Virus record (IMG/VR): IMGVR_UViG_2778261267_000002
Length of the DNA stretch: 39,741 bases
Reading direction: 5' to 3' (one strand)
DNA from: a virus
Lineage: Duplodnaviria; Heunggongvirae; Uroviricota; Caudoviricetes
Part shown: positions 1 through 39,741 of the stretch, piece after piece
Position numbering within the stretch: position 1 is the stretch's first letter
Layout of the letters: the number at the start of each line of letters is the position of its first letter
Notes under the pieces: generated by a model
Database searches by the model: none
What the model was told of the DNA's origin: nothing
What the model saw: the letters and a program-made list of their open reading frames with translations, nothing else
Made by a program: the position numbers and the translations under genes

Positions 1-1248
1 ATGGCACTGAATATTCCATTCAGAAATGCGTACTATCGTTTTGCATCCAGTTACTCATTTCTCTTTTTTATTTCCTGGTCGCTGTGGTGGTCGTTATACG
101 CTATTTGGCTGAAAGGACATCTAGGGTTGACAGGGACGGAATTAGGTACACTTTATTCGGTCAACCAGTTTACCAGCATTCTATTTATGATGTTCTACGG
201 CATCGTTCAGGATAAACTCGGTCTGAAGAAACCGCTCATCTGGTGTATGAGTTTTATCCTGGTCTTGACCGGACCGTTTATGATTTACGTTTATGAACCG
301 TTACTGCAAAGCAATTTTTCTGTAGGTCTAATTCTGGGTGCGCTCTTTTTTGGCCTGGGGTATCTGGCGGGATGCGGTTTGCTTGACAGCTTCACCGAAA
401 AAATGGCGCGAAATTTTCATTTCGAATATGGAACAGCGCGCGCCTGGGGATCTTTTGGCTATGCTATTGGCGCGTTCTTTGCCGGCATATTCTTTAGTAT
501 CAGTCCCCATATCAACTTCTGGTTGGTCTCGCTATTTGGTGCTGTATTTATGATGATCAACATGCGTTTTAAAGACCAGGATCACCAGTGCGTAGCGGCG
601 GATGCGGGAGGGGTAAAAAAAGAGGATTTTATCGCAGTTTTCAAGGATCGAAACTTCTGGGTTTTCGTCATATTTATTGTGGGGACGTGGTCTTTCTATA
701 ACATTTTTGATCAACAACTTTTTCCTGTCTTTTATGCAGGTTTATTCGAATCACACGATGTAGGAACGCGCCTGTATGGTTATCTCAACTCATTCCAGGT
801 GGTACTCGAAGCGCTGTGCATGGCGATTATTCCGTTCTTTGTGAATCGGGTAGGGCCAAAAAATGCATTACTTATCGGTGTTGTGATTATGGCGTTGCGT
901 ATCCTTTCCTGCGCGCTGTTCGTTAACCCCTGGATTATTTCATTAGTGAAGCTGTTACATGCCATTGAGGTTCCACTTTGTGTCATATCCGTCTTCAAAT
1001 ACAGCGTGGCAAACTTTGATAAGCGCCTGTCGTCGACGATCTTTCTGATTGGTTTTCAAATTGCCAGTTCGCTTGGGATTGTGCTGCTTTCAACGCCGAC
1101 TGGGATACTCTTTGACCACGCAGGCTACCAGACAGTTTTCTTCGCAATTTCGGGTATTGTCTGCCTGATGTTGCTATTTGGCATTTTCTTCCTGAGTAAA
1201 AAACGCGAGCAAATAGTTATGGAAACGCCTGTACCTTCAGCAATATAG
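1..1248 (+). CDS. cscB: Sucrose:H+ symporter, LacY-family (oligosaccharide:H+ symporter) MFS permease; host gene flanking the prophage
   Basis: 415-aa ORF, polytopic hydrophobic profile, collinear similarity to LacY/CscB recalled from memory (e.g. GLKKPLIW, FEYGTARAWGSFGYA motifs); typical ~50% GC. Confidence 0.8.
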   Translation: MALNIPFRNAYYRFASSYSFLFFISWSLWWSLYAIWLKGHLGLTGTELGTLYSVNQFTSILFMMFYGIVQDKLGLKKPLIWCMSFILVLTGPFMIYVYEPLLQSNFSVGLILGALFFGLGYLAGCGLLDSFTEKMARNFHFEYGTARAWGSFGYAIGAFFAGIFFSISPHINFWLVSLFGAVFMMINMRFKDQDHQCVAADAGGVKKEDFIAVFKDRNFWVFVIFIVGTWSFYNIFDQQLFPVFYAGLFESHDVGTRLYGYLNSFQVVLEALCMAIIPFFVNRVGPKNALLIGVVIMALRILSCALFVNPWIISLVKLLHAIEVPLCVISVFKYSVANFDKRLSSTIFLIGFQIASSLGIVLLSTPTGILFDHAGYQTVFFAISGIVCLMLLFGIFFLSKKREQIVMETPVPSAI

Positions 1249-1256
1249 ACGTAAAC

Positions 1257-1301
1257 TTTTTCCGGTTGTTGTCGATATCTCCATATCCCTCAACCGGAAA
1301 A
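1257..1301. repeat. Inverted repeat hairpin (TTTCCGGTTG ... CAACCGGAAA) just 3' of cscB; possible transcription terminator or REP-like element
   Basis: 10-bp perfect inverted repeat with ~22-nt spacer seen directly 9 nt after the cscB stop. Confidence 0.3.
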
Positions 1302-1671
1302 TAATAATAGTAAAATGCTTAGCCCTGCTAATAATCACCTATGTTCTGGTACAGTCGCTCAAATGTACTCCGGATACACGGTTCGCTGATTTCCAGGACA
1401 TTGTCGTCATTCAGCGACCTGTCCCGTGTATCACGGGCCTGCGAATTCATCAAGGAATGCATTGCGGAGTGAAGTATCGAGTCACGCCGTATTTCGCTAT
1501 CAGGATTCTGTGTGATGGTTACATCGCCCGGCCCAGGGCTGTTTAGTCATCAGCGCTTTCTGACAGTGCTGAGATTTCAACCTGTTGCAGTAAAAATGAG
1601 TAGATATAAGGCAAGTGTGCTGCCAAACCCATCTTTTACGGGGTGAAGGTAGATTTCGTTTGAAGGGTATC

Positions 1672-1686
1672 TGGTGTCCCCTGCAG
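1672..1686. other. Putative attachment-site core copy (TGGTGTCCCCTGCAG = reverse complement of the 3' end of tRNA-Arg argW)
   Basis: 15-nt match to the 3' acceptor/T-stem end of argW as I recall it; host-like sequence on one side, phage-like on the other. Confidence 0.5.
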
Positions 1687-1759
1687 ACATCTACTTGGCG
1701 CGGCAGGGGATTGATTGGAATGATGTTTTTTAGATGTAAGAAATATTTTACCCGCTATT

Positions 1760-1960
1760 TTACCCATTGGCGCGGCTTAAGAGCTTATTTTTGAATTCAC
1801 AATGGTCACGATATAACCATCTTGCTCGTCCGTGGATAACTTTGGCTTTAGGCAGGTCGCCGGACTTAATCCGGTCATAGATGAAGGTCTTACCGAAGCC
1901 AGTATCAGCCATGATGAATTTCAAATCAACCAGTGAATCAGGTTGTAGTTCGTGTTGCAT
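1760..1960 (-). CDS. torI: Excisionase / recombination directionality factor, TorI/AlpA-type winged-helix (66 aa)
   Basis: 66-aa ORF MQHELQPDSLVDLKFIMADTGFGKTFIYDRIKSGDLPKAKVIHGRARWLYRDH...; matches the KplE1 TorI excisionase as recalled; AlpA-family HTH signature. Confidence 0.75.
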   Translation of the reverse strand: MQHELQPDSLVDLKFIMADTGFGKTFIYDRIKSGDLPKAKVIHGRARWLYRDHCEFKNKLLSRANG

Positions 1961-2003
1961 GAGTGCTATCTCCGAATAGGGAATCGAACCTGCAAATCAG
2001 GCA

Positions 2004-2028
2004 ATAAAAAACCGCCATCAGGCGGCTT
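2004..2028 (-). terminator. Rho-independent terminator on minus strand (GCCGCC-UGAU-GGCGG followed by U-run)
   Basis: GC stem-loop plus T6 run read on the minus strand, overlapping the stop of the 55-aa ORF upstream of torI. Confidence 0.5.
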
Positions 2029-2185
2029 GGTGTTCTTTCAGTTCTTCAATACAAATATTGGTTACGTCTGCATGTGCTATCTGCACCCATAGCATCCAGT
2101 GGTCATAGCAGTCGTTGATGTTCTCTGCTTCGATAACTCTGTTGAATGGTTCTCCATTCCATTCACCTGTGACTCGGAAGTGCAT
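2018..2185 (-). CDS. Small hypothetical protein (55 aa)
   Basis: Short ORF MHFRVTGEWNGEPFNRVIEAENINDCYDHW... between the DUF551 gene and torI; below the ORF-track cutoff. Confidence 0.3.
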   Translation of the reverse strand: MHFRVTGEWNGEPFNRVIEAENINDCYDHWMLWVQIAHADVTNICIEELKEHQAA

Positions 2186-2372
2186 TTATCATCTCCATAA
2201 AACAAAACTCGCCGTAGCGAGTTCAGATAAAAGAAATCCCCGTCAGTGCGAGGATTGTTAGTTGCGCTCTGCTGCTTCCTTGGTCATTACCATATCCACC
2301 AAACTTCACCAGACATGATTCTCGCAATCACTATCATCACCAAAGTGATAATCACAACTTTAACTGGCGGCA

Positions 2373-3227
2373 TCATTCACCATCCTGCTCCGGCGGTTCA
2401 GGAATCGCCATCCATCTGATTACATCGCAATTACGTAGGCTGATGTCATCTCCAAGCCATCCTTGACCTTCAGACCAGCATTGCACGTAATACCCGTCTG
2501 CGGCGTCAACTACGCACCACTGCGCGTCGTCCGGCATTCGCTCACTACAGCTTATCCAGCCATCCGGAGTTACCGGATAGTTGCCCGATAGCGCATTACG
2601 CAATCGCTCCAGCTTCACGTATTCCTGAACCCTGTTTCCGTCGCATGCCTGAAGCCATTGCGCAGCCTTTTGCGCATCAGTGTGAAAGGCACAAGTGCGA
2701 CCGTCATCAAATTGCATTTCGTAGAGGTCAGCAACTTGTTCAAACTGCGTATGTTGTGACTTGTAAGTTTGGCTTACAGGTTCGGCACCATGAAGCATGG
2801 CGTCGCTCCGCTCTATGCCATCCAGCGCGATTCGCAGTGCCTGAATTGTGGTAGAGCTATCGTTTGGGGCTATTCCATATCGCTCGAATACAGCTAAATG
2901 GTTGCGCATAATCTCAGGCGTAAGCTCTTTGTAAGCATAAGCAAGAGGCTCTGATGCATTATCCGGCACAACCGACGCAGGCGCGGCAGCATAAACAGGA
3001 ATAACGTCCGATTGATCTTTATTGCTTTCATCCGTCAAAGCCCAGAATAATTTTCCGGCCGGATGTTTGAAAATATAAGCAACTGGCTCTGCTTCCAGTG
3101 ATGCCAGTGCAATTCGTGCCAGTTCCCTAAGATTTTCGCTATATGGTGAAGTATTATCACGATGGATTATGTGGTTAGCTGTATCTATGAGAATTTGCTT
3201 TTGTTCTTCTCTGTTCATAGTGGTCAT
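2373..3227 (-). CDS. DUF551-domain early protein (284 aa)
   Basis: C-terminal W/C-rich segment (DGWISCSERMPDD...WCVV...GYYVQCW) typical of DUF551 prophage proteins; start overlaps upstream stop. Confidence 0.6.
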   Translation of the reverse strand: MTTMNREEQKQILIDTANHIIHRDNTSPYSENLRELARIALASLEAEPVAYIFKHPAGKLFWALTDESNKDQSDVIPVYAAAPASVVPDNASEPLAYAYKELTPEIMRNHLAVFERYGIAPNDSSTTIQALRIALDGIERSDAMLHGAEPVSQTYKSQHTQFEQVADLYEMQFDDGRTCAFHTDAQKAAQWLQACDGNRVQEYVKLERLRNALSGNYPVTPDGWISCSERMPDDAQWCVVDAADGYYVQCWSEGQGWLGDDISLRNCDVIRWMAIPEPPEQDGE

Positions 3228-34732: not shown

Positions 34733-36838
34733 ATGACAGACATTACAGCCAATGTTGTAGTGAGTATGCCTTCGCAACTCTTCACTATGGCGCGTTCTTT
34801 TAAAGCCGTAGCCAATGGCAAAATTTATATCGGTAAAATTGATGCTGACCCGGTAAATCCTGAAAACCAGATTCAGGTTTATGTAGAGAACGAAGACGGA
34901 TCTCACATTCCTGTTTCGCAACCAATCATTATCAATTCTGCTGGTTACCCTGTATATAACGGACAGATTGCCAAGTTTGTTACGGTGCAAGGTCATTCTA
35001 TGGCTGTTTATGATGCGTATGGTGCACAGCAGTTCTATTTTCCAAACGTGCTGAAGTATGATCCTGATCAGCTAAGGCAGAGTCTAACAAAATATGGCTC
35101 AACAATTGATCAGATAGCGCATCGGGCGACAGCCATTAAAACATTTGAAGAGTTTGGGGCAATTGGTGATGGGATTGTTGACGACACCACATCTATGTTA
35201 TCAGCATTAGCATGGCTCGAAGGAATACCTTTTGGTAAATTAACAGGGAGAGTAGGTGCGAGATATCGCATAACACAAAGTCTTGTAATGAAGTTCGATG
35301 GCTCGTATACACAGGATGTTACATCTACACGGTATATTGATTTTACTGGTACAACAATCGTAGCAGGAGACTCGGGAATTACATGTTTAAGAATGAGCCA
35401 TGATTTCTGCCACATAATCAATCCTGTAGTAATTAACCCAGATAACTACTCTGACGTTATTGCCTACGCCATTGCTCCTGAAGACGAATCTCAGGCAACC
35501 ATGCGTGTGTCACAGCAATTTTGTGTAATGGAGAATCCACGCGCAAGGGGAGTAAAAGTCGGACTGAAATTCAAGCCGGGACCAACAGTATCAGGTGAAA
35601 ACAGCGGCTCATACTACCACTCAATTATGAACCCTAACTTTGAGCGTGTAGACTGCGGGTTTTATTTTGAACGCAGCGTCAGTGGCGATAATAATAATAC
35701 GCGCATCCATATATATAACCCTCATCATGCTACGGGAAATTGTAGCTTTTGGATTGAGTCTACCGACACTTTGCGCGTATTTGGTGGTCACGCTGAGAAT
35801 ATCACTCTAGGTACTTGGCCTGCAGACGTGCCATGCGCAGTGCGTATTGTTAAGACGGTGAACAGTGATACATCAGTGGCAGGTAATATACACTTCCGTG
35901 GATTTTTTGGCGAGTTGTGTACGCGTCCGTATCAGATTGATTTTAATGTGAAAACCTATGAAAACCACTTTGACTGGTCATGGGTGTATCTAACTGAGAA
36001 CGCACAGCGTCAAGGTGCTAACAGTTATGAAAGCATATCCCAGTTTGACGGGGTTCTTGTTAGCTCAAATATGGACCCAGACCAGAAAAACGTTACTGGA
36101 TGCCGTAGGCGTTCTAGTGGTAAAGGGGCGCTTATTATTCAGCCTGACGACTCATCTCCGGCCGAGCTTTATTCTGACACAAAATGGAAAATTACCTCAT
36201 CTGTACTAGAGGCTCCTGTTCAGGACTTACGCAACGATAATAGTGAAATACAGATTCTTGGTGCCACTAATTCAGGTATCCTGCTCACTACGACTACTGG
36301 TACAAAGGGGGTAACATTATCGAGTTATGACGGTAAATTGTCACCAGGAAACCCAAGCGGCGACTTTAAGATTGGCGGGTACAATGGATTCATGCCTGAT
36401 GCAGACAATACGACTGTATTAGGATATACATCACATAGATGGTCTGTTGTGTATGCTGCCACGGGCACAATAAGCACATCGGATGAAACACTGAAGGTAA
36501 AAACCCCGGCAACAAACGAGAGTGCGGAAAGGGAAGCGGCTAATGAAATTCGCAAGAATATTATTCGTTATAAGTTTGCTGATGCCATAGAACTTAAGGG
36601 AGAAGAGTCTGCACGTGTCCACTTTGGTGTTGGTGCGCAAACTGTTGGTTCTATCCTGACAAAGCACGGACTTAAACCAGAGGATTACGCATTCTGGTGC
36701 AAGGACGAGTGGGAAGAATCTTCTGAAATAAGCATTAATCCAGAAACGTTAGAAGAAGTTGTAACAGTTAAACCAGCGGGCGTAAGGTACGGAATACGCT
36801 ATGATGAGCTTATTATGTTCTTAGCAATGTATGCGTAA
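34733..36838 (+). CDS. Tailspike: P22-like N-terminal head-binding domain, distinct receptor-binding domain, C-terminal intramolecular chaperone (peptidase S74-like) domain
   Basis: First ~110 aa [58 protein letters not shown] match P22 gp9; C-terminus has SDETLK and [13 protein letters not shown] / [15 protein letters not shown] motifs. Confidence 0.85.
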
Positions 36839-36859: not shown

Positions 36860-38002
36860 ATGTACAATGCTGCAAATTTTTTTGGGGTTATTAACATGAA
36901 CGCCTTTTTGCTTTTTATTGCAGTAATTGGTGTAATTATAGATTTAGCATCTCCGTTGACAGTTTATGGTGTACAACTATTCCTATTTCCATTCGCATGC
37001 CTTTTTTTATACGCAAAAAGTGTAAGTAAAATGACGTATCAGTCATTATTATTTATAATAATGGTGGTATCTATTGTTATAATAAGTTCATTTATCCAAG
37101 TTTATATATCAAAGCATAATGAGATATTATTATCACAGACGCTTAAAGTAATAATTTGGGTGGTGTCGTCATACTTGTTATATGTTGGATGTAAGGGGGT
37201 GGATAAAGATACTTTAGAGAGATCCATAAATGCAGCGCTAGTAGTTTTCATGCTCTCTTTATTTATTCAAGTAGTATCGAAGCTTTTATTTGGTTCTATT
37301 GTTGACTACTCTATGCTAATTGGTGGCGAACCATCAAGAAATATGATGACTGGAGTTGGGTTTAGGCCAACAGGGCTAACTGCAGAACCAAGTGTATATT
37401 GCGGAATAACAGCGTGGTTAATTACGTTACGATATGCAATTAATAAAAAGATTGATTATTTGTTTTTACTGTCATGCGTTTCAATGACGTTTACATTGTC
37501 ATTTGTTGGAATATTTCTTTGCTTTCTCATGCTATGTGTTGGTATGATGAGAATTAAGATGATTATCCCAGTGATAGCAATATTTGTGATTGGGTATCTT
37601 TCTGTTTTAAATATTGTAAATGACAGGATTGTTTTATTTCTATCTGGGGCTGATGGTAGCAATAATATAAAGATAGAGACCATTCTTGATTTTATTGGAA
37701 ATCAAAATTTATATATTTTTGGTTATGGTTTGATTGGTAAGTCAGAATCTGCGCCATCATTTTATGAGTCGTTATATGATATGACTATATTTGGAAACTT
37801 TATTACAATATTTGGTCTTCCATTTGGAGTATTATGCATAGTATTATATTGTGTTTTTATAATTAAAATTAAAATAACAAAAAGGGCAAAGCTAATGATG
37901 TTGCTATCATCTTTAAAAATTAGCCTGCCGTTTTTTGCTGTGTTTTATATGGCTATTGCTATGATATGTGCAATTTCAAATAAGAACAAAGCGTTAACGT
38001 AA
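36860..38002 (+). CDS. AT-rich polytopic inner-membrane protein (~10 TM), possible Wzy-like polysaccharide polymerase / O-antigen modification protein (alternative start 36896)
   Basis: Highly hydrophobic 380-aa ORF at ~30% GC with a hydrophilic loop containing R and G residues; sits in the tailspike-int slot. Confidence 0.6.
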   Translation: MYNAANFFGVINMNAFLLFIAVIGVIIDLASPLTVYGVQLFLFPFACLFLYAKSVSKMTYQSLLFIIMVVSIVIISSFIQVYISKHNEILLSQTLKVIIWVVSSYLLYVGCKGVDKDTLERSINAALVVFMLSLFIQVVSKLLFGSIVDYSMLIGGEPSRNMMTGVGFRPTGLTAEPSVYCGITAWLITLRYAINKKIDYLFLLSCVSMTFTLSFVGIFLCFLMLCVGMMRIKMIIPVIAIFVIGYLSVLNIVNDRIVLFLSGADGSNNIKIETILDFIGNQNLYIFGYGLIGKSESAPSFYESLYDMTIFGNFITIFGLPFGVLCIVLYCVFIIKIKITKRAKLMMLLSSLKISLPFFAVFYMAIAMICAISNKNKALT

Positions 38003-38302
38003 CAACTTGCACATAATAATATCTCTTTTTTTAGTTTCTGGTGATTGTATTGTTATACTATAATCACCAGAATAAAACTCAGTTAAAGTGAATTTTTCTT
38101 TATCAATAGATATATAATCAAGAGAACGAGCCTCGTTAAAAAATTCTTTTTCAAGGCTAAATTCTACATCATCTAGATGCACTTTGGACGCATTTGATGT
38201 GTTAACTTTAACAAGATGAGAACCACATACTATTTCATTTATCTTTGCGCTTGATGAATTACTAACCATAAAGGTAAGTATAAAAAACAAGTATTTAAAC
38301 AT
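37994..38302 (-). CDS. Small secreted protein (102 aa, signal peptide), AT-rich
   Basis: N-terminus MFKYLFFILTFMVSNSSSA; convergent with the membrane protein gene, overlapping by 9 nt. Confidence 0.45.
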   Translation of the reverse strand: MFKYLFFILTFMVSNSSSAKINEIVCGSHLVKVNTSNASKVHLDDVEFSLEKEFFNEARSLDYISIDKEKFTLTEFYSGDYSITIQSPETKKRDIIMCKLLR

Positions 38303-38583: not shown

Positions 38584-39741
38584 TCACTCCACCTTCCCAT
38601 CAAGCCAGTCCGCCCACCACTGCATCATTTCTCTGCGCTTATCGAGATACTGAGCATGGTTGTAAATCCCGCGCACAGATCCGCCGTTGGCATGTGCCAG
38701 TTGCACCTCAATCGCGTCAGCAGGCCATTCGTGCTCGTTCATAATCGTGCTGAATTCATGCCTGAATCCGTGACCGCTTTCCAGACCTTCATAGCCGATT
38801 TGTTTGATCACAAGTAATACCGCGTTCTCGCAGATTGGCTTCTTCTTATCGTTGCGCCCGGCAAAAACAAACTCTGACACTGGTTTAGTGATTGAGCTTA
38901 GCGTAGTGAGAAGTTCAACCACCTGGTCTGACATAGGAACCACATGAATTTTGCGACCCTTCATCACACTGGCGTCGATGGTGATAATCCTGTTTTCAAA
39001 ATCGACGTTCTTCCATTGCATGGAACGAAGCTCTTTTGTTCTTAGGGCTGTGTAGCGTAAAACCTTGGTGGCAATGAGCGATACGATACTTCCTGAAAAT
39101 GTTGCCAGTGCTTTGTTGAATGCCGGGATCTGGTCTGCAGGAAGAAACGGGAAGTTCTTCTTGCGGTATCCCTTCATGGCGTCAGCAAGATCAGGTGCCG
39201 GGTTATATTTAGCCCTTCCGGTGACAATAGCGTAACGGAAAACCTCGCCGCATCTTCTGCGGGCTTTGTTGGCTCGCTCCATTGCACCGCGATCTTCAAA
39301 TCTGCGGATTACTTCCAGCAGTTGCATCGGCTCAATATCCTGAATTTCAAGACCGCCGATGATGGGTAAAATGTCGTCATCAAACATTTTGGCAAGTTCA
39401 GTTGCATAGCCTACTGACCAGACTTGCTTCTTGTGCTCGTACCATTCCTTGTAAATGGCACTAAAGGAATTGTTGTTAGACGAAGCCTTTTTCGCTTTTA
39501 CCGGATCGATGCCAACCGAGATGTCTTTCCTCGCGGTCCATGCTTTATCTCTTGCCTCCTGCAAAGTCATTAGCGGATATTTTCCTACGGTCAGGATTTT
39601 CTCCTTACCGTCAATCTTGTAGCGAAGCTGCCATACCTTTTTCCCTGACACAGGGACATAAAGGTACAGGCCATTACCATCGAGAAGGCGGTATGGTTTC
39701 TCTTTCGGCTTTGCTGCTTCAATCTGCTTAACGGTGAGCAT
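38584..39741 (-). CDS. intS: Tyrosine integrase, P4/IntS type (385 aa); start codon is the last three bases of the window
   Basis: Full-length ORF with tyrosine-recombinase catalytic signature (R...H-x-x-R...Y); matches KplE1/CPS-53 IntS as recalled. Confidence 0.85.
   Translation of the reverse strand: MLTVKQIEAAKPKEKPYRLLDGNGLYLYVPVSGKKVWQLRYKIDGKEKILTVGKYPLMTLQEARDKAWTARKDISVGIDPVKAKKASSNNNSFSAIYKEWYEHKKQVWSVGYATELAKMFDDDILPIIGGLEIQDIEPMQLLEVIRRFEDRGAMERANKARRRCGEVFRYAIVTGRAKYNPAPDLADAMKGYRKKNFPFLPADQIPAFNKALATFSGSIVSLIATKVLRYTALRTKELRSMQWKNVDFENRIITIDASVMKGRKIHVVPMSDQVVELLTTLSSITKPVSEFVFAGRNDKKKPICENAVLLVIKQIGYEGLESGHGFRHEFSTIMNEHEWPADAIEVQLAHANGGSVRGIYNHAQYLDKRREMMQWWADWLDGKVE

Follow-up and report, generated by a model that had tools for sequence, protein, structure and literature searches.

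Among described systems, the closest to the locus analysed here is KplE1 (CPS-53), a cryptic prophage in the argW tRNA gene of Escherichia coli K-12. Its attachment core is a stretch of 16 nt (CTGCAGGGGACACCAT), and its recombination module is conserved in HK620, Sf6 and CUS-3; the same work defined the sites of the excisionase TorI (GTTCG, GTCCG and GATCG) and the arm-type repeats of the integrase IntS, described TorI as a repressor of PintS and called PtorI 'non-characterized' (PMC2951348). Recombination of KplE1 at this core was reconstituted in vitro, integration and excision by IntS, TorI and IHF were established on KplE1 and HK620 substrates nearly identical to the present module, and an attR of 135 bp was sufficient for excision in vitro. 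In Sf6, HK620, KplE1 and Kapi1, attP lies between int and xis, which places the two genes at opposite ends of the prophage (PMC8787464).

We analysed a 39,741-nt stretch of viral DNA (hereafter, the window), in which the original prediction, made from the sequence alone, had picked out two argW-derived segments flanking torI, referred to below as fragment A and fragment B. The module of the window resembles that of KplE1 in its argW target, its core, the TorI pentamers and arm repeats of attL, the separation of int from xis and the presence of fragment B upstream of torI; TorI is identical in the two elements and IntS is 99.5% identical. However, KplE1 is a 10-kb remnant, whereas the window holds a full-length P22-like element of ~38 kb. 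The host flank is dsdC in KplE1 and the csc sucrose locus in the window, the core measures 16 bp in the former and 15 bp in the latter, and the gene upstream of the torI module is ypdJ/yfdT in KplE1 but a 55-aa open reading frame with a terminator in the window. The Lederbergvirus phages HK620, Sf6, Kapi1 and CUS-3 carry xis/attP DNA that is 96-97% identical to that of the window, including fragment B and the terminator-bearing upstream reading frame, and share its layout of tailspike, O-antigen or capsule modification genes, int, attP, xis and early-left genes. Their deposited annotations conflict: the HK620 and Sf6 records place the core at fragment A and a predicted promoter in the region of fragment B, whereas the CUS-3 record places the core at fragment B and omits torI. 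The wider family of P4-type tyrosine integrases, which are directed at the T-arm and 3' end of tRNA genes, has the same domain set, a putative core in the T-stem and acceptor stem, and restoration of the tRNA 3' end by phage DNA. To our knowledge, no P4-type module with a conserved orphan copy of the tRNA-side half-site in the excisionase leader has been described.

Fragment A is the attR core of a KplE1-type argW module

The P22-like prophage occupies the window between the start of cscB at its left end (1..1248, plus strand) and intS at its right end (38584..39741, minus strand), the start codon of intS being the exact right end of the window. IntS is a P4-type tyrosine integrase with an arm-binding domain (Pfam PF13356, PF22022 and PF00589, i.e. 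the Arm-DNA-bind_3, central and catalytic domains), and 383 of its 385 residues are identical to those of K-12 IntS. At the other end of the prophage, torI (1760..1960, minus strand; the gene name is that annotated in relatives) encodes a 66-aa excisionase, or recombination directionality factor, identical to K-12 TorI at 66/66 positions and 100% identical to HkaC of HK620. The gene lies 73 bp from the core and is transcribed towards attR. Its leader (1961..1978, minus strand) contains the Shine-Dalgarno sequence GGAG at 1970..1973 on the plus strand, and the 55-aa reading frame upstream (2018..2185) ends at an intrinsic terminator (2009..2028, minus strand) made of an 8-bp stem followed by a T-run. 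The prophage also encodes a head-binding tailspike, and relatives carry the early-left genes ead/Ea22 and anti-RecBCD.

Fragment A (TGGTGTCCCCTGCAG) occupies 1672..1686 and has one exact copy in the window. The argW gene ends in TTGCAGGTTCGATTCCTGCAGGGGACACCA in K-12, in the contig L118 and in a relative that is 99.9% identical at the int end, and fragment A corresponds to argW positions 61-75, whereas fragment B corresponds to positions 46-61. With one mismatch allowed, each fragment recurred in at most 1 of 100 dinucleotide-preserving shuffles of the window. The argW sequence assumed in the original prediction matched real genes at both fragments, but the two segments overlap by one base and are not strictly adjacent.

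No intact tRNA gene was found by ARAGORN anywhere in the window. We used L118, a contig that encodes exactly the IntS of the window, to stand in for the sequence past the window edge; it was identical to the right end of the window over all 3,658 common bases and so belongs to the source genome or to an identical strain. An intact tRNA-Arg(CCU) gene lies in L118 on the same strand as intS, with its end 160 bp past the window edge, and the same 15 bp (CTGCAGGGGACACCA) that form the last 15 nt of argW (tRNA positions 61-75) and the minus strand of fragment A close this intact argW beside intS. Placed via L118, attL and the intact argW extend over 1-235 bp past the window edge. The second direct repeat for which a search beyond the integrase had been suggested was thus located, and the integrase 5' end faces an intact argW as anticipated, both in L118 and in the 99.9% identical relative. 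The base following the 15-bp repeat is T at attL and G at attR. The duplicated core measures 15 bp here because the base after CCA differs, the attR flank being the csc locus and not dsdC.

The surrounding sites were equally similar to those of K-12. The leader, torI and attR were identical to K-12 at 322 of 342 positions and attL, taken from L118, at 189 of 194, and the five TorI pentamers, like the four arm-like repeats, were all at the K-12 positions. In the P arm of attR (1687..1759, minus strand), the arm-type repeat TTTTACCC occurs twice on the plus strand, once at 1746..1753 and again at 1758..1765, where it overlaps the stop codon of torI. The P arm also contains an inverted copy of the core motif (GCAGGGG, 1703..1709), and it falls within the published 135-bp attR substrate. 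In the K-12 annotation, the equivalent of fragment A is the pseudogene pawZ, which marks the end of CPS-53, and the HK620 and Sf6 records label it the attP core. Together with the published 16-nt core of KplE1 (PMC2951348), these records agree with the assignment of the first fragment as an attachment core. The placement of int and xis at opposite prophage ends, as in KplE1, is seen directly in the window and is documented for the group (PMC8787464). These results indicate that the window contains the known KplE1/HK620-type argW module in a new host strain, and the identity of fragment A as the core in argW is established knowledge. Given the near-identity to KplE1 and HK620, IntS, TorI and IHF would be expected to recombine at fragment A in the strain of the window as well.

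The torI leader carries a second argW T-arm copy, fragment B

Fragment B occupies 1980..1995 on the minus strand (TTGCAGGTTCGATTCC; GGAATCGAACCTGCAA on the plus strand) and is an exact, single-copy match in the window to argW positions 46-61, covering the end of the variable loop, the 5' T-stem, the T-loop and the 3' T-stem as far as its second base. The original prediction had given 1979..1994 for this string, one base too far to the left, and 1672..1686 for fragment A, which was exact; the ~290 bp said to separate the two fragments do contain torI (1760..1960). K-12, HK620, Sf6, NCTC8623 and S88 all have this 16-mer upstream of torI, and it was present in 75 of the 80 viral contigs that encode an identical TorI. 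The conserved module begins ~14 nt upstream of fragment B, directly after the T-run of the preceding terminator; these terminators differ among viral contigs, while the module itself is the same.

The match to the tRNA amounts to 16/16 positions in E. coli and to 17/18 in Serratia, where it extends over tRNA positions 46-63 (TTCCAGGTTCGATTCCTG). In Edwardsiella and Pantoea stewartii, the match runs on as CC(C)TGT. A degenerate T-loop is also present on the P-arm side of the core in most relatives (TTCGATGTA-TGCAGGGG), where the junction reads (A)ATTCGATGTA|TGCAGGGG compared to GGTTCGATTCC|TGCAGGGG in the tRNA. We considered a model in which torI had been inserted into a contiguous 30-nt argW fragment and had split it in two. 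This model was rejected, as a degenerate T-loop is kept beside the core and the Serratia copy of fragment B reaches position 63. Both tRNA-derived segments thus cover some of the same tRNA positions, which makes fragment B a second T-arm copy and not the missing half of the first. Judged by its sequence, fragment B is descended from the tRNA; the phage carries it as a T-arm copy of its own in the leader of torI, ~290 bp inside attR.

An 11-base box within fragment B is conserved across genera

We collected modules from three sources, namely phage records, genomes sampled at one per species, and viral contigs queried with diverged excisionases, which yielded 67 distinct xis proteins. The target was the 3' end of tRNA-Arg(CCU) in every one of the 67 modules, and the set offered no module aimed at another tRNA for a co-variation test. 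The attR cores follow the tRNA variants of the hosts, with GGGAACGCCA in Edwardsiella and CTGTAGGGG in Rouxiella. The box was scored as present when the leader contained a match of at least 9/11 to GGTTCGATTCC. By this threshold it was found in 48 of the 67 xis modules, over a range of excisionase identity of 58-100%, and its spacing to the ATG was 19 nt in 34 of these 48 modules and 18 nt in another eight.

The constrained part of fragment B is the box GTTCGATTCCC (1979..1989, minus strand), which includes one base that is not derived from the tRNA. Among 41 unique leaders this box was invariant or nearly so, a uniformity inflated by the selection at 9/11 or better, which does not affect the identity comparison below or the bimodal pattern of presence and absence. 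The non-tRNA C that follows position 61 was conserved in 39 of the 41 leaders. The tRNA position G51 varied (G, A or T) and lies outside the invariant block, and the 5' flank of the box was poorly conserved, with a weak TTnCA trace of tRNA positions 46-50. The information content of the box exceeded that of the Shine-Dalgarno sequence. In nine lineages taken without selection for the box, mean pairwise identity was 0.96 for the box, compared to 0.60 for third codon positions of xis and 0.66 for the P arm.

The box has also been duplicated and lost. Tandem duplications were found with a period of 16 in Erwinia phage Midgardsormr38 and related phages, and with a period of 14 in contig L216. A clean deletion of ~25 nt (TTATTGCCTG|GAG...) has removed the box in Dryocola and in four Emek-type contigs, and the box was absent from Tatumella, Rouxiella, several Pantoea, Klebsiella phage Chronis, Erwinia phage EhrS_49 and the L190-type contigs. 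The modules lacking it otherwise look intact. This pattern, in which the box is either present and invariant or absent, points to an element that is dispensable yet selected, and not to a relic in decay.

The T-stem bases 5' of the box were CCAGG, ACAGG, GCCGG, CCAAG, CCTG or TCAG, and they do not follow the GCAGG implied by attR, which argues against repeated copying from the host tRNA. For this comparison, host T-stems were deduced from attR; actual host tRNAs were compared for E. coli and Proteus, and the part of tRNA-Arg(CCU) that is invariant between these two (AGGTTCGATTCCTG) coincides with the box. Taken together, these comparisons show that the 11-base box has evidently been under purifying selection across genera. 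The suggestion that the second fragment is an older att relic therefore holds for its tRNA origin but not for the decay that the word implies, as few non-coding bases of the module are as well conserved between genera as its central 11.

Fragment B lies outside the published excision substrate and ends at the predicted cleavage point

The inner primer of the published 135-bp attR substrate (attR-IHF2) maps to 1764..1783 of the window, so that the substrate ends at ~1783, 197 bp short of fragment B. We searched 5,426 complete E. coli genomes for the argW(1-61)::torI-leader junction that would be expected from recombination between two copies of fragment B, and found it in none of them; every alignment to the torI leader began exactly at tRNA position 46. 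Fragment B lies outside the sufficient attR and gives no such fusion product, so it is not an arm site that recombination requires, nor can it be detected as a site of crossover. Inspection by eye revealed no convincing match of fragment B to IHF, arm-type or tor-box sites. The proposal that the second fragment serves as a binding arm for recombination proteins is thus not supported for a required arm, as the sufficient attR stops 197 bp short of it and its sequence is unlike the arm-type repeats. Fragment B does contain a TorI pentamer, GTTCG, for which the nearest mapped site is I4 of K-12 (GGTTCGCTT). The base following this pentamer is always A in fragment B, but C or T in all five mapped TorI sites.

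The core itself has a dyad structure. The predicted 7-bp overlap, TGCAGGG (1679..1685, minus strand; tRNA positions 62-68), was derived from symmetry and is flanked by the imperfect inverted half-sites AGATGTC (1686..1692) and GACACCA (1672..1678), with the dyad axis at tRNA A65. Overlaps of 6-8 bp are usual for tyrosine recombinases. In 49 modules, a mean of 4.25 of the 7 half-site positions were symmetric, compared to 1.75 expected; the commonest arrangement was AGGTGTC|TGCAGGG|GACACCA, and one module was perfectly symmetric (TGGTGTC|TGCAGGG|GACACCA). By this symmetry, the left cleavage point would fall at tRNA 61/62, where the identity between attP and attB begins and where the match of fragment B stops. 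A shifted-register control did not tell apart overlap lengths of 1 to 9 bp; this control was uninformative because the dyad symmetry reaches into the spacer, and as it could not fix the overlap length, the predicted cleavage position is a deduction from the dyad. Since the match ends at position 61, at the left cleavage point predicted from the dyad, fragment B would be a copy of the attB-type left half-site.

The CUS-3 record is delimited at the inner of two nested repeats

The GenBank record of CUS-3 starts and ends with the 16-mer of fragment B, labelled attL core and attR core, and leaves torI outside. In the HK620 record the same stretch is a predicted cII-activated 'integration' promoter, and in the Sf6 record it is 'pI', at the end of a 'boundary sequence'. 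The K1 strain S88 and CUS-3 are 100% identical at the int/neuO end. In S88, fragment B is followed by torI, the P arm, fragment A and dsdC, an order which indicates that the CUS-3 record was cut at the inner nested repeat and lacks its own excisionase. Direct repeats at other coordinates, which the original prediction had named as counter-evidence, do in part exist: there are two nested repeats, the outer at fragment A and the inner at fragment B, and the CUS-3 record took the inner one. The prophage carries both of these nested repeats, which in the tRNA lie next to each other, and at least one public record has been delimited by the wrong one; automated callers of prophage boundaries could repeat this error. 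No mention of the fragment B sequence in a phage context was found in the searchable literature. Two observations are new, though modest: the conservation of the box across genera and the wrong delimitation of the CUS-3 record.

Discussion

The explanation we favour has two parts, namely that recombination takes place at fragment A by the KplE1-type module and that fragment B is a conserved, half-site-derived cis element controlling torI, and we put the probability that both hold at roughly 0.6. In this explanation, IntS would exchange strands within the 15-bp core, at 1672..1686 in attR and at its partner just past the window beside intS. The circular phage would carry attP between torI and intS, so that integration places the two genes at opposite ends of the prophage, and excision would need TorI bound to GTTCG-type sites in attL. 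Strand exchange in the core and TorI-dependent excision are steps taken from the published work on KplE1, in which the module studied is almost identical. Fragment B was probably left behind when the xis/P-arm cassette joined an argW-type att site, and it may since have been retained as a cis-acting element that controls torI expression. It would most likely act by binding the module's own proteins. The core-binding domain of IntS is a candidate reader because fragment B mimics the attB half-site that IntS must recognise, and TorI is a candidate because fragment B contains the GTTCG pentamer.

More specifically, we propose tentatively that the box is an attB half-site mimic, a domesticated operator that would be read by IntS or TorI and would adjust excisionase expression to the amount of recombination proteins present; we consider this possible, but less likely than not to be correct in this specific form. 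An isolated single half-site is normally bound weakly by a tyrosine recombinase. The C half-site of attP varies considerably among modules (TTCGATGTA, TTAGGTGTC, GTAGATGTC), much more than fragment B does, so that IntS binding alone is not an obvious reason for 11 invariant bases. Moreover, the fixed spacing between box and ATG could equally reflect a translational role.

Several other readings of fragment B were weighed against the proposed cis element. That fragment B is a true or alternative attachment core, at which some phages excise, is what the CUS-3 record implies, and its 16-mer is a genuine direct repeat flanking the prophage. We give this reading hardly any credence. The free-phage genomes of HK620, Sf6 and Kapi1 contain torI, with fragment A between torI and int, torI and fragment A lie beyond fragment B in S88, and the reconstituted KplE1 recombination took place at fragment A. 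Excision at fragment B would strand the excisionase and the P arm and disrupt argW, and as a crossover site it is effectively refuted by the zero argW::torI-leader products in the 5,426 E. coli genomes. A neutral fossil, left over from a tandem att site or from an argW-derived attP that was once longer and persisting only through youth, would account for a tRNA-derived segment outside the functional attR and for clean losses in several lineages with intact-looking modules. However, the box has an identity of 0.96 against 0.60 at third codon positions of xis while the surrounding leader can barely be aligned, its distance from the ATG stays fixed even where the excisionases share just 58-75% identity, and the conserved block takes in a non-tRNA base and leaves out G51 of the tRNA, unlike a merely young copy; we therefore regard a fossil as improbable. 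It is likewise quite improbable that fragment B serves as a distal arm site of the integrative intasome on attP that excision does not need. The substrates documented in the accessible part of the literature are for excision only, and the TorI pentamer lies inside fragment B, but the segment is ~290 bp from the core and beyond xis, far outside the usual attP arms. Furthermore, arm-type sites switch between Int lineages (GGGTAAAA versus GGGCATAA), whereas fragment B does not resemble them or change with them, and free phages without it exist, e.g. Chronis and EhrS_49.

The two remaining readings concern expression. The annotated pI would place fragment B within an 'integration' promoter, activated by cII, from which int would be transcribed through torI and attP once a cell is infected. 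The HK620 record places this promoter at 1664..1702 with the cII site TTGCCTGATTTGC, Sf6 annotates pI at the same place, the second TTGC of the cII site is formed by the first four bases of fragment B, and a start just upstream of the ATG would yield Int without Xis, analogous to PI of lambda. Both annotations are predictions and not experiments, however, and the spacing is TTGC-N5-TTGC, where N6 would be canonical. Erwinia, Salmonella, Edwardsiella, Serratia and Pantoea modules keep the box but lack both the TTGC half-sites and the putative -10 (TATTCG), and a sigma-70 scan found no promoter-like site in 1600..2300. We judge this reading unlikely, although it retains some weight. Alternatively, fragment B could act as RNA, either by mimicking a T-arm in the torI 5' UTR, to be recognised by a factor that binds or processes tRNAs, or by forming a hairpin over the ribosome binding site. 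The fixed distance to the start codon suits a translational function, a T-arm-like hairpin can be drawn in Edwardsiella-type and Serratia-type leaders, and bases of the box pair with the Shine-Dalgarno region in some lineages. Folding of seven lineages nevertheless gave no common structure (z-scores of -1.6 to +0.8, none significant), the T-stem is not maintained in the E. coli, Erwinia and Salmonella types, and Rfam returned no match above threshold, which makes an RNA role very improbable. The Rfam match to STnc130 (24 bits against a gathering threshold of 55) was discarded, being carried by the terminator hairpin and A/T runs with fragment B unaligned.

That the att core forms the end of argW and that integration splits int from xis is textbook knowledge for this phage family, to which the window adds one example. 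The inner repeat is not junk, as many genera have retained a T-arm-derived box of 11 bases in the leader of the excisionase gene. If the half-site mimic is real, it would represent a so-far undescribed layer of directionality control in tRNA-integrating phages across Enterobacterales. A fragment of the integration target would then have been recruited to regulate the decision between integration and excision, thereby offering a concrete element for the torI promoter region.

Attachment core, host flank and P arm

In K-12 the prophage is flanked by dsdC, whereas the host flank in the window (1..1671) is the csc sucrose-utilisation locus (cscB), and because of this difference the duplicated core measures 15 bp, not 16 or 17 bp. 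Among E. coli sequences, the closest match to this flank reached only ~96% identity.

At this end of the prophage, we found an inverted repeat, CCCCTGC(A)...N17-20...(T)GCAGGGG (window 1678..1709), which was kept at the same place in all relatives. Through it the core motif recurs in inverted form within the P arm, some 20 bp inward of the crossover. At the other end, the T-loop of the intact argW, which lies at attL beyond the window and was read from the matching sequence that extends past its right edge (L118 2310..2440), adds a sixth GTTCG pentamer, which is oriented like TorI sites I1-I5 and lies 31 bp upstream of I1.

The core is also crossed by a 43-aa ORF (window 1636..1767, minus strand). 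Its first 32 residues match HkaB of HK620 (Sf6 gene 17), and past residue 32 it runs into host DNA. In the free phage this short reading frame runs across attP, so its C-terminus is replaced on integration. Another possible counterpart is hyp25 of Kapi1, located between int and attP.

Boundaries of the CUS-3 record

The attL and attR core labels of CUS-3 (CP000711; L004 1..16 and L007 1..16) fall on the inner direct repeat, that of fragment B, the second argW-derived copy, located in the torI leader. This repeat sets both ends of the GenBank record, which therefore lacks torI and the P arm as well as the core that has experimental support. In the chromosome of E. coli S88, a K1 strain whose int end is identical to that of CUS-3, torI, the P arm and the core are present after fragment B (L120 1670..2000).

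Duplication and loss of the conserved box

The conserved box of fragment B occurs in tandem in phages of the Midgardsormr38 type, as CAGGTTCGATTCCC GT CAGGTTCGATTCCC with a period of 16 (Erwinia phage Midgardsormr38, L008 ~2800..2840). Duplicated boxes were also found in the leaders of L216, L219, L220 and L223; in L216 the duplication reads TGTTCGATTCCCGCGTTCGATTACC, with a period of 14. The box is missing just upstream of xis in five loci (L100 from Dryocola, L190, L193, L197 and L200), although the terminator upstream of it and the conserved ATTGCCTG are retained in all of them. The loss, with the junction TTTTTATTGCCTG|GAGGAAAGC or |GAGATAATGAT, looks like one common, clean deletion of ~25 nt. 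The hosts of all five modules carry the GACGCCA tRNA variant.

Neighbouring genes and related modules

Between the tailspike gene (window 34733..36838) and intS lie two genes (window 36860..38302), one for a multi-pass membrane protein of 380 aa and one for a protein of 102 aa without a Pfam match. In P22-like phages this position is where genes for O-antigen or capsule modification are found, and in other strains with identical IntS it is occupied by acyltransferases instead.

A related module in Proteus hauseri (L109 9990..11570) has the usual order of tRNA-Arg(CCU), attL and int, but its TorI-like gene comes directly after int, in convergent orientation, rather than at the far end. The tRNA gene there has the T-stem ACAGG/CCTGT, and CCA is not encoded. 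Two contigs with enterobacterial-type xis/att modules (L097, L112) carry the labels 'MAG: Actinomycetes bacterium' and 'MAG: Parachlamydiaceae bacterium', which probably reflects mis-binning or contamination.

Possible bracketing of the crossover

On the attR side, the tRNA-like identity ends early in L095, L097, L105, L111 and two viral contigs, stopping after GGGG, GGGGA, GGGGACA or GGGGACAC, with unrelated DNA beyond. These prophages may be secondary-site insertions or may have flank deletions; if they are insertions, the crossover would be bracketed within CTGCAGGGG.
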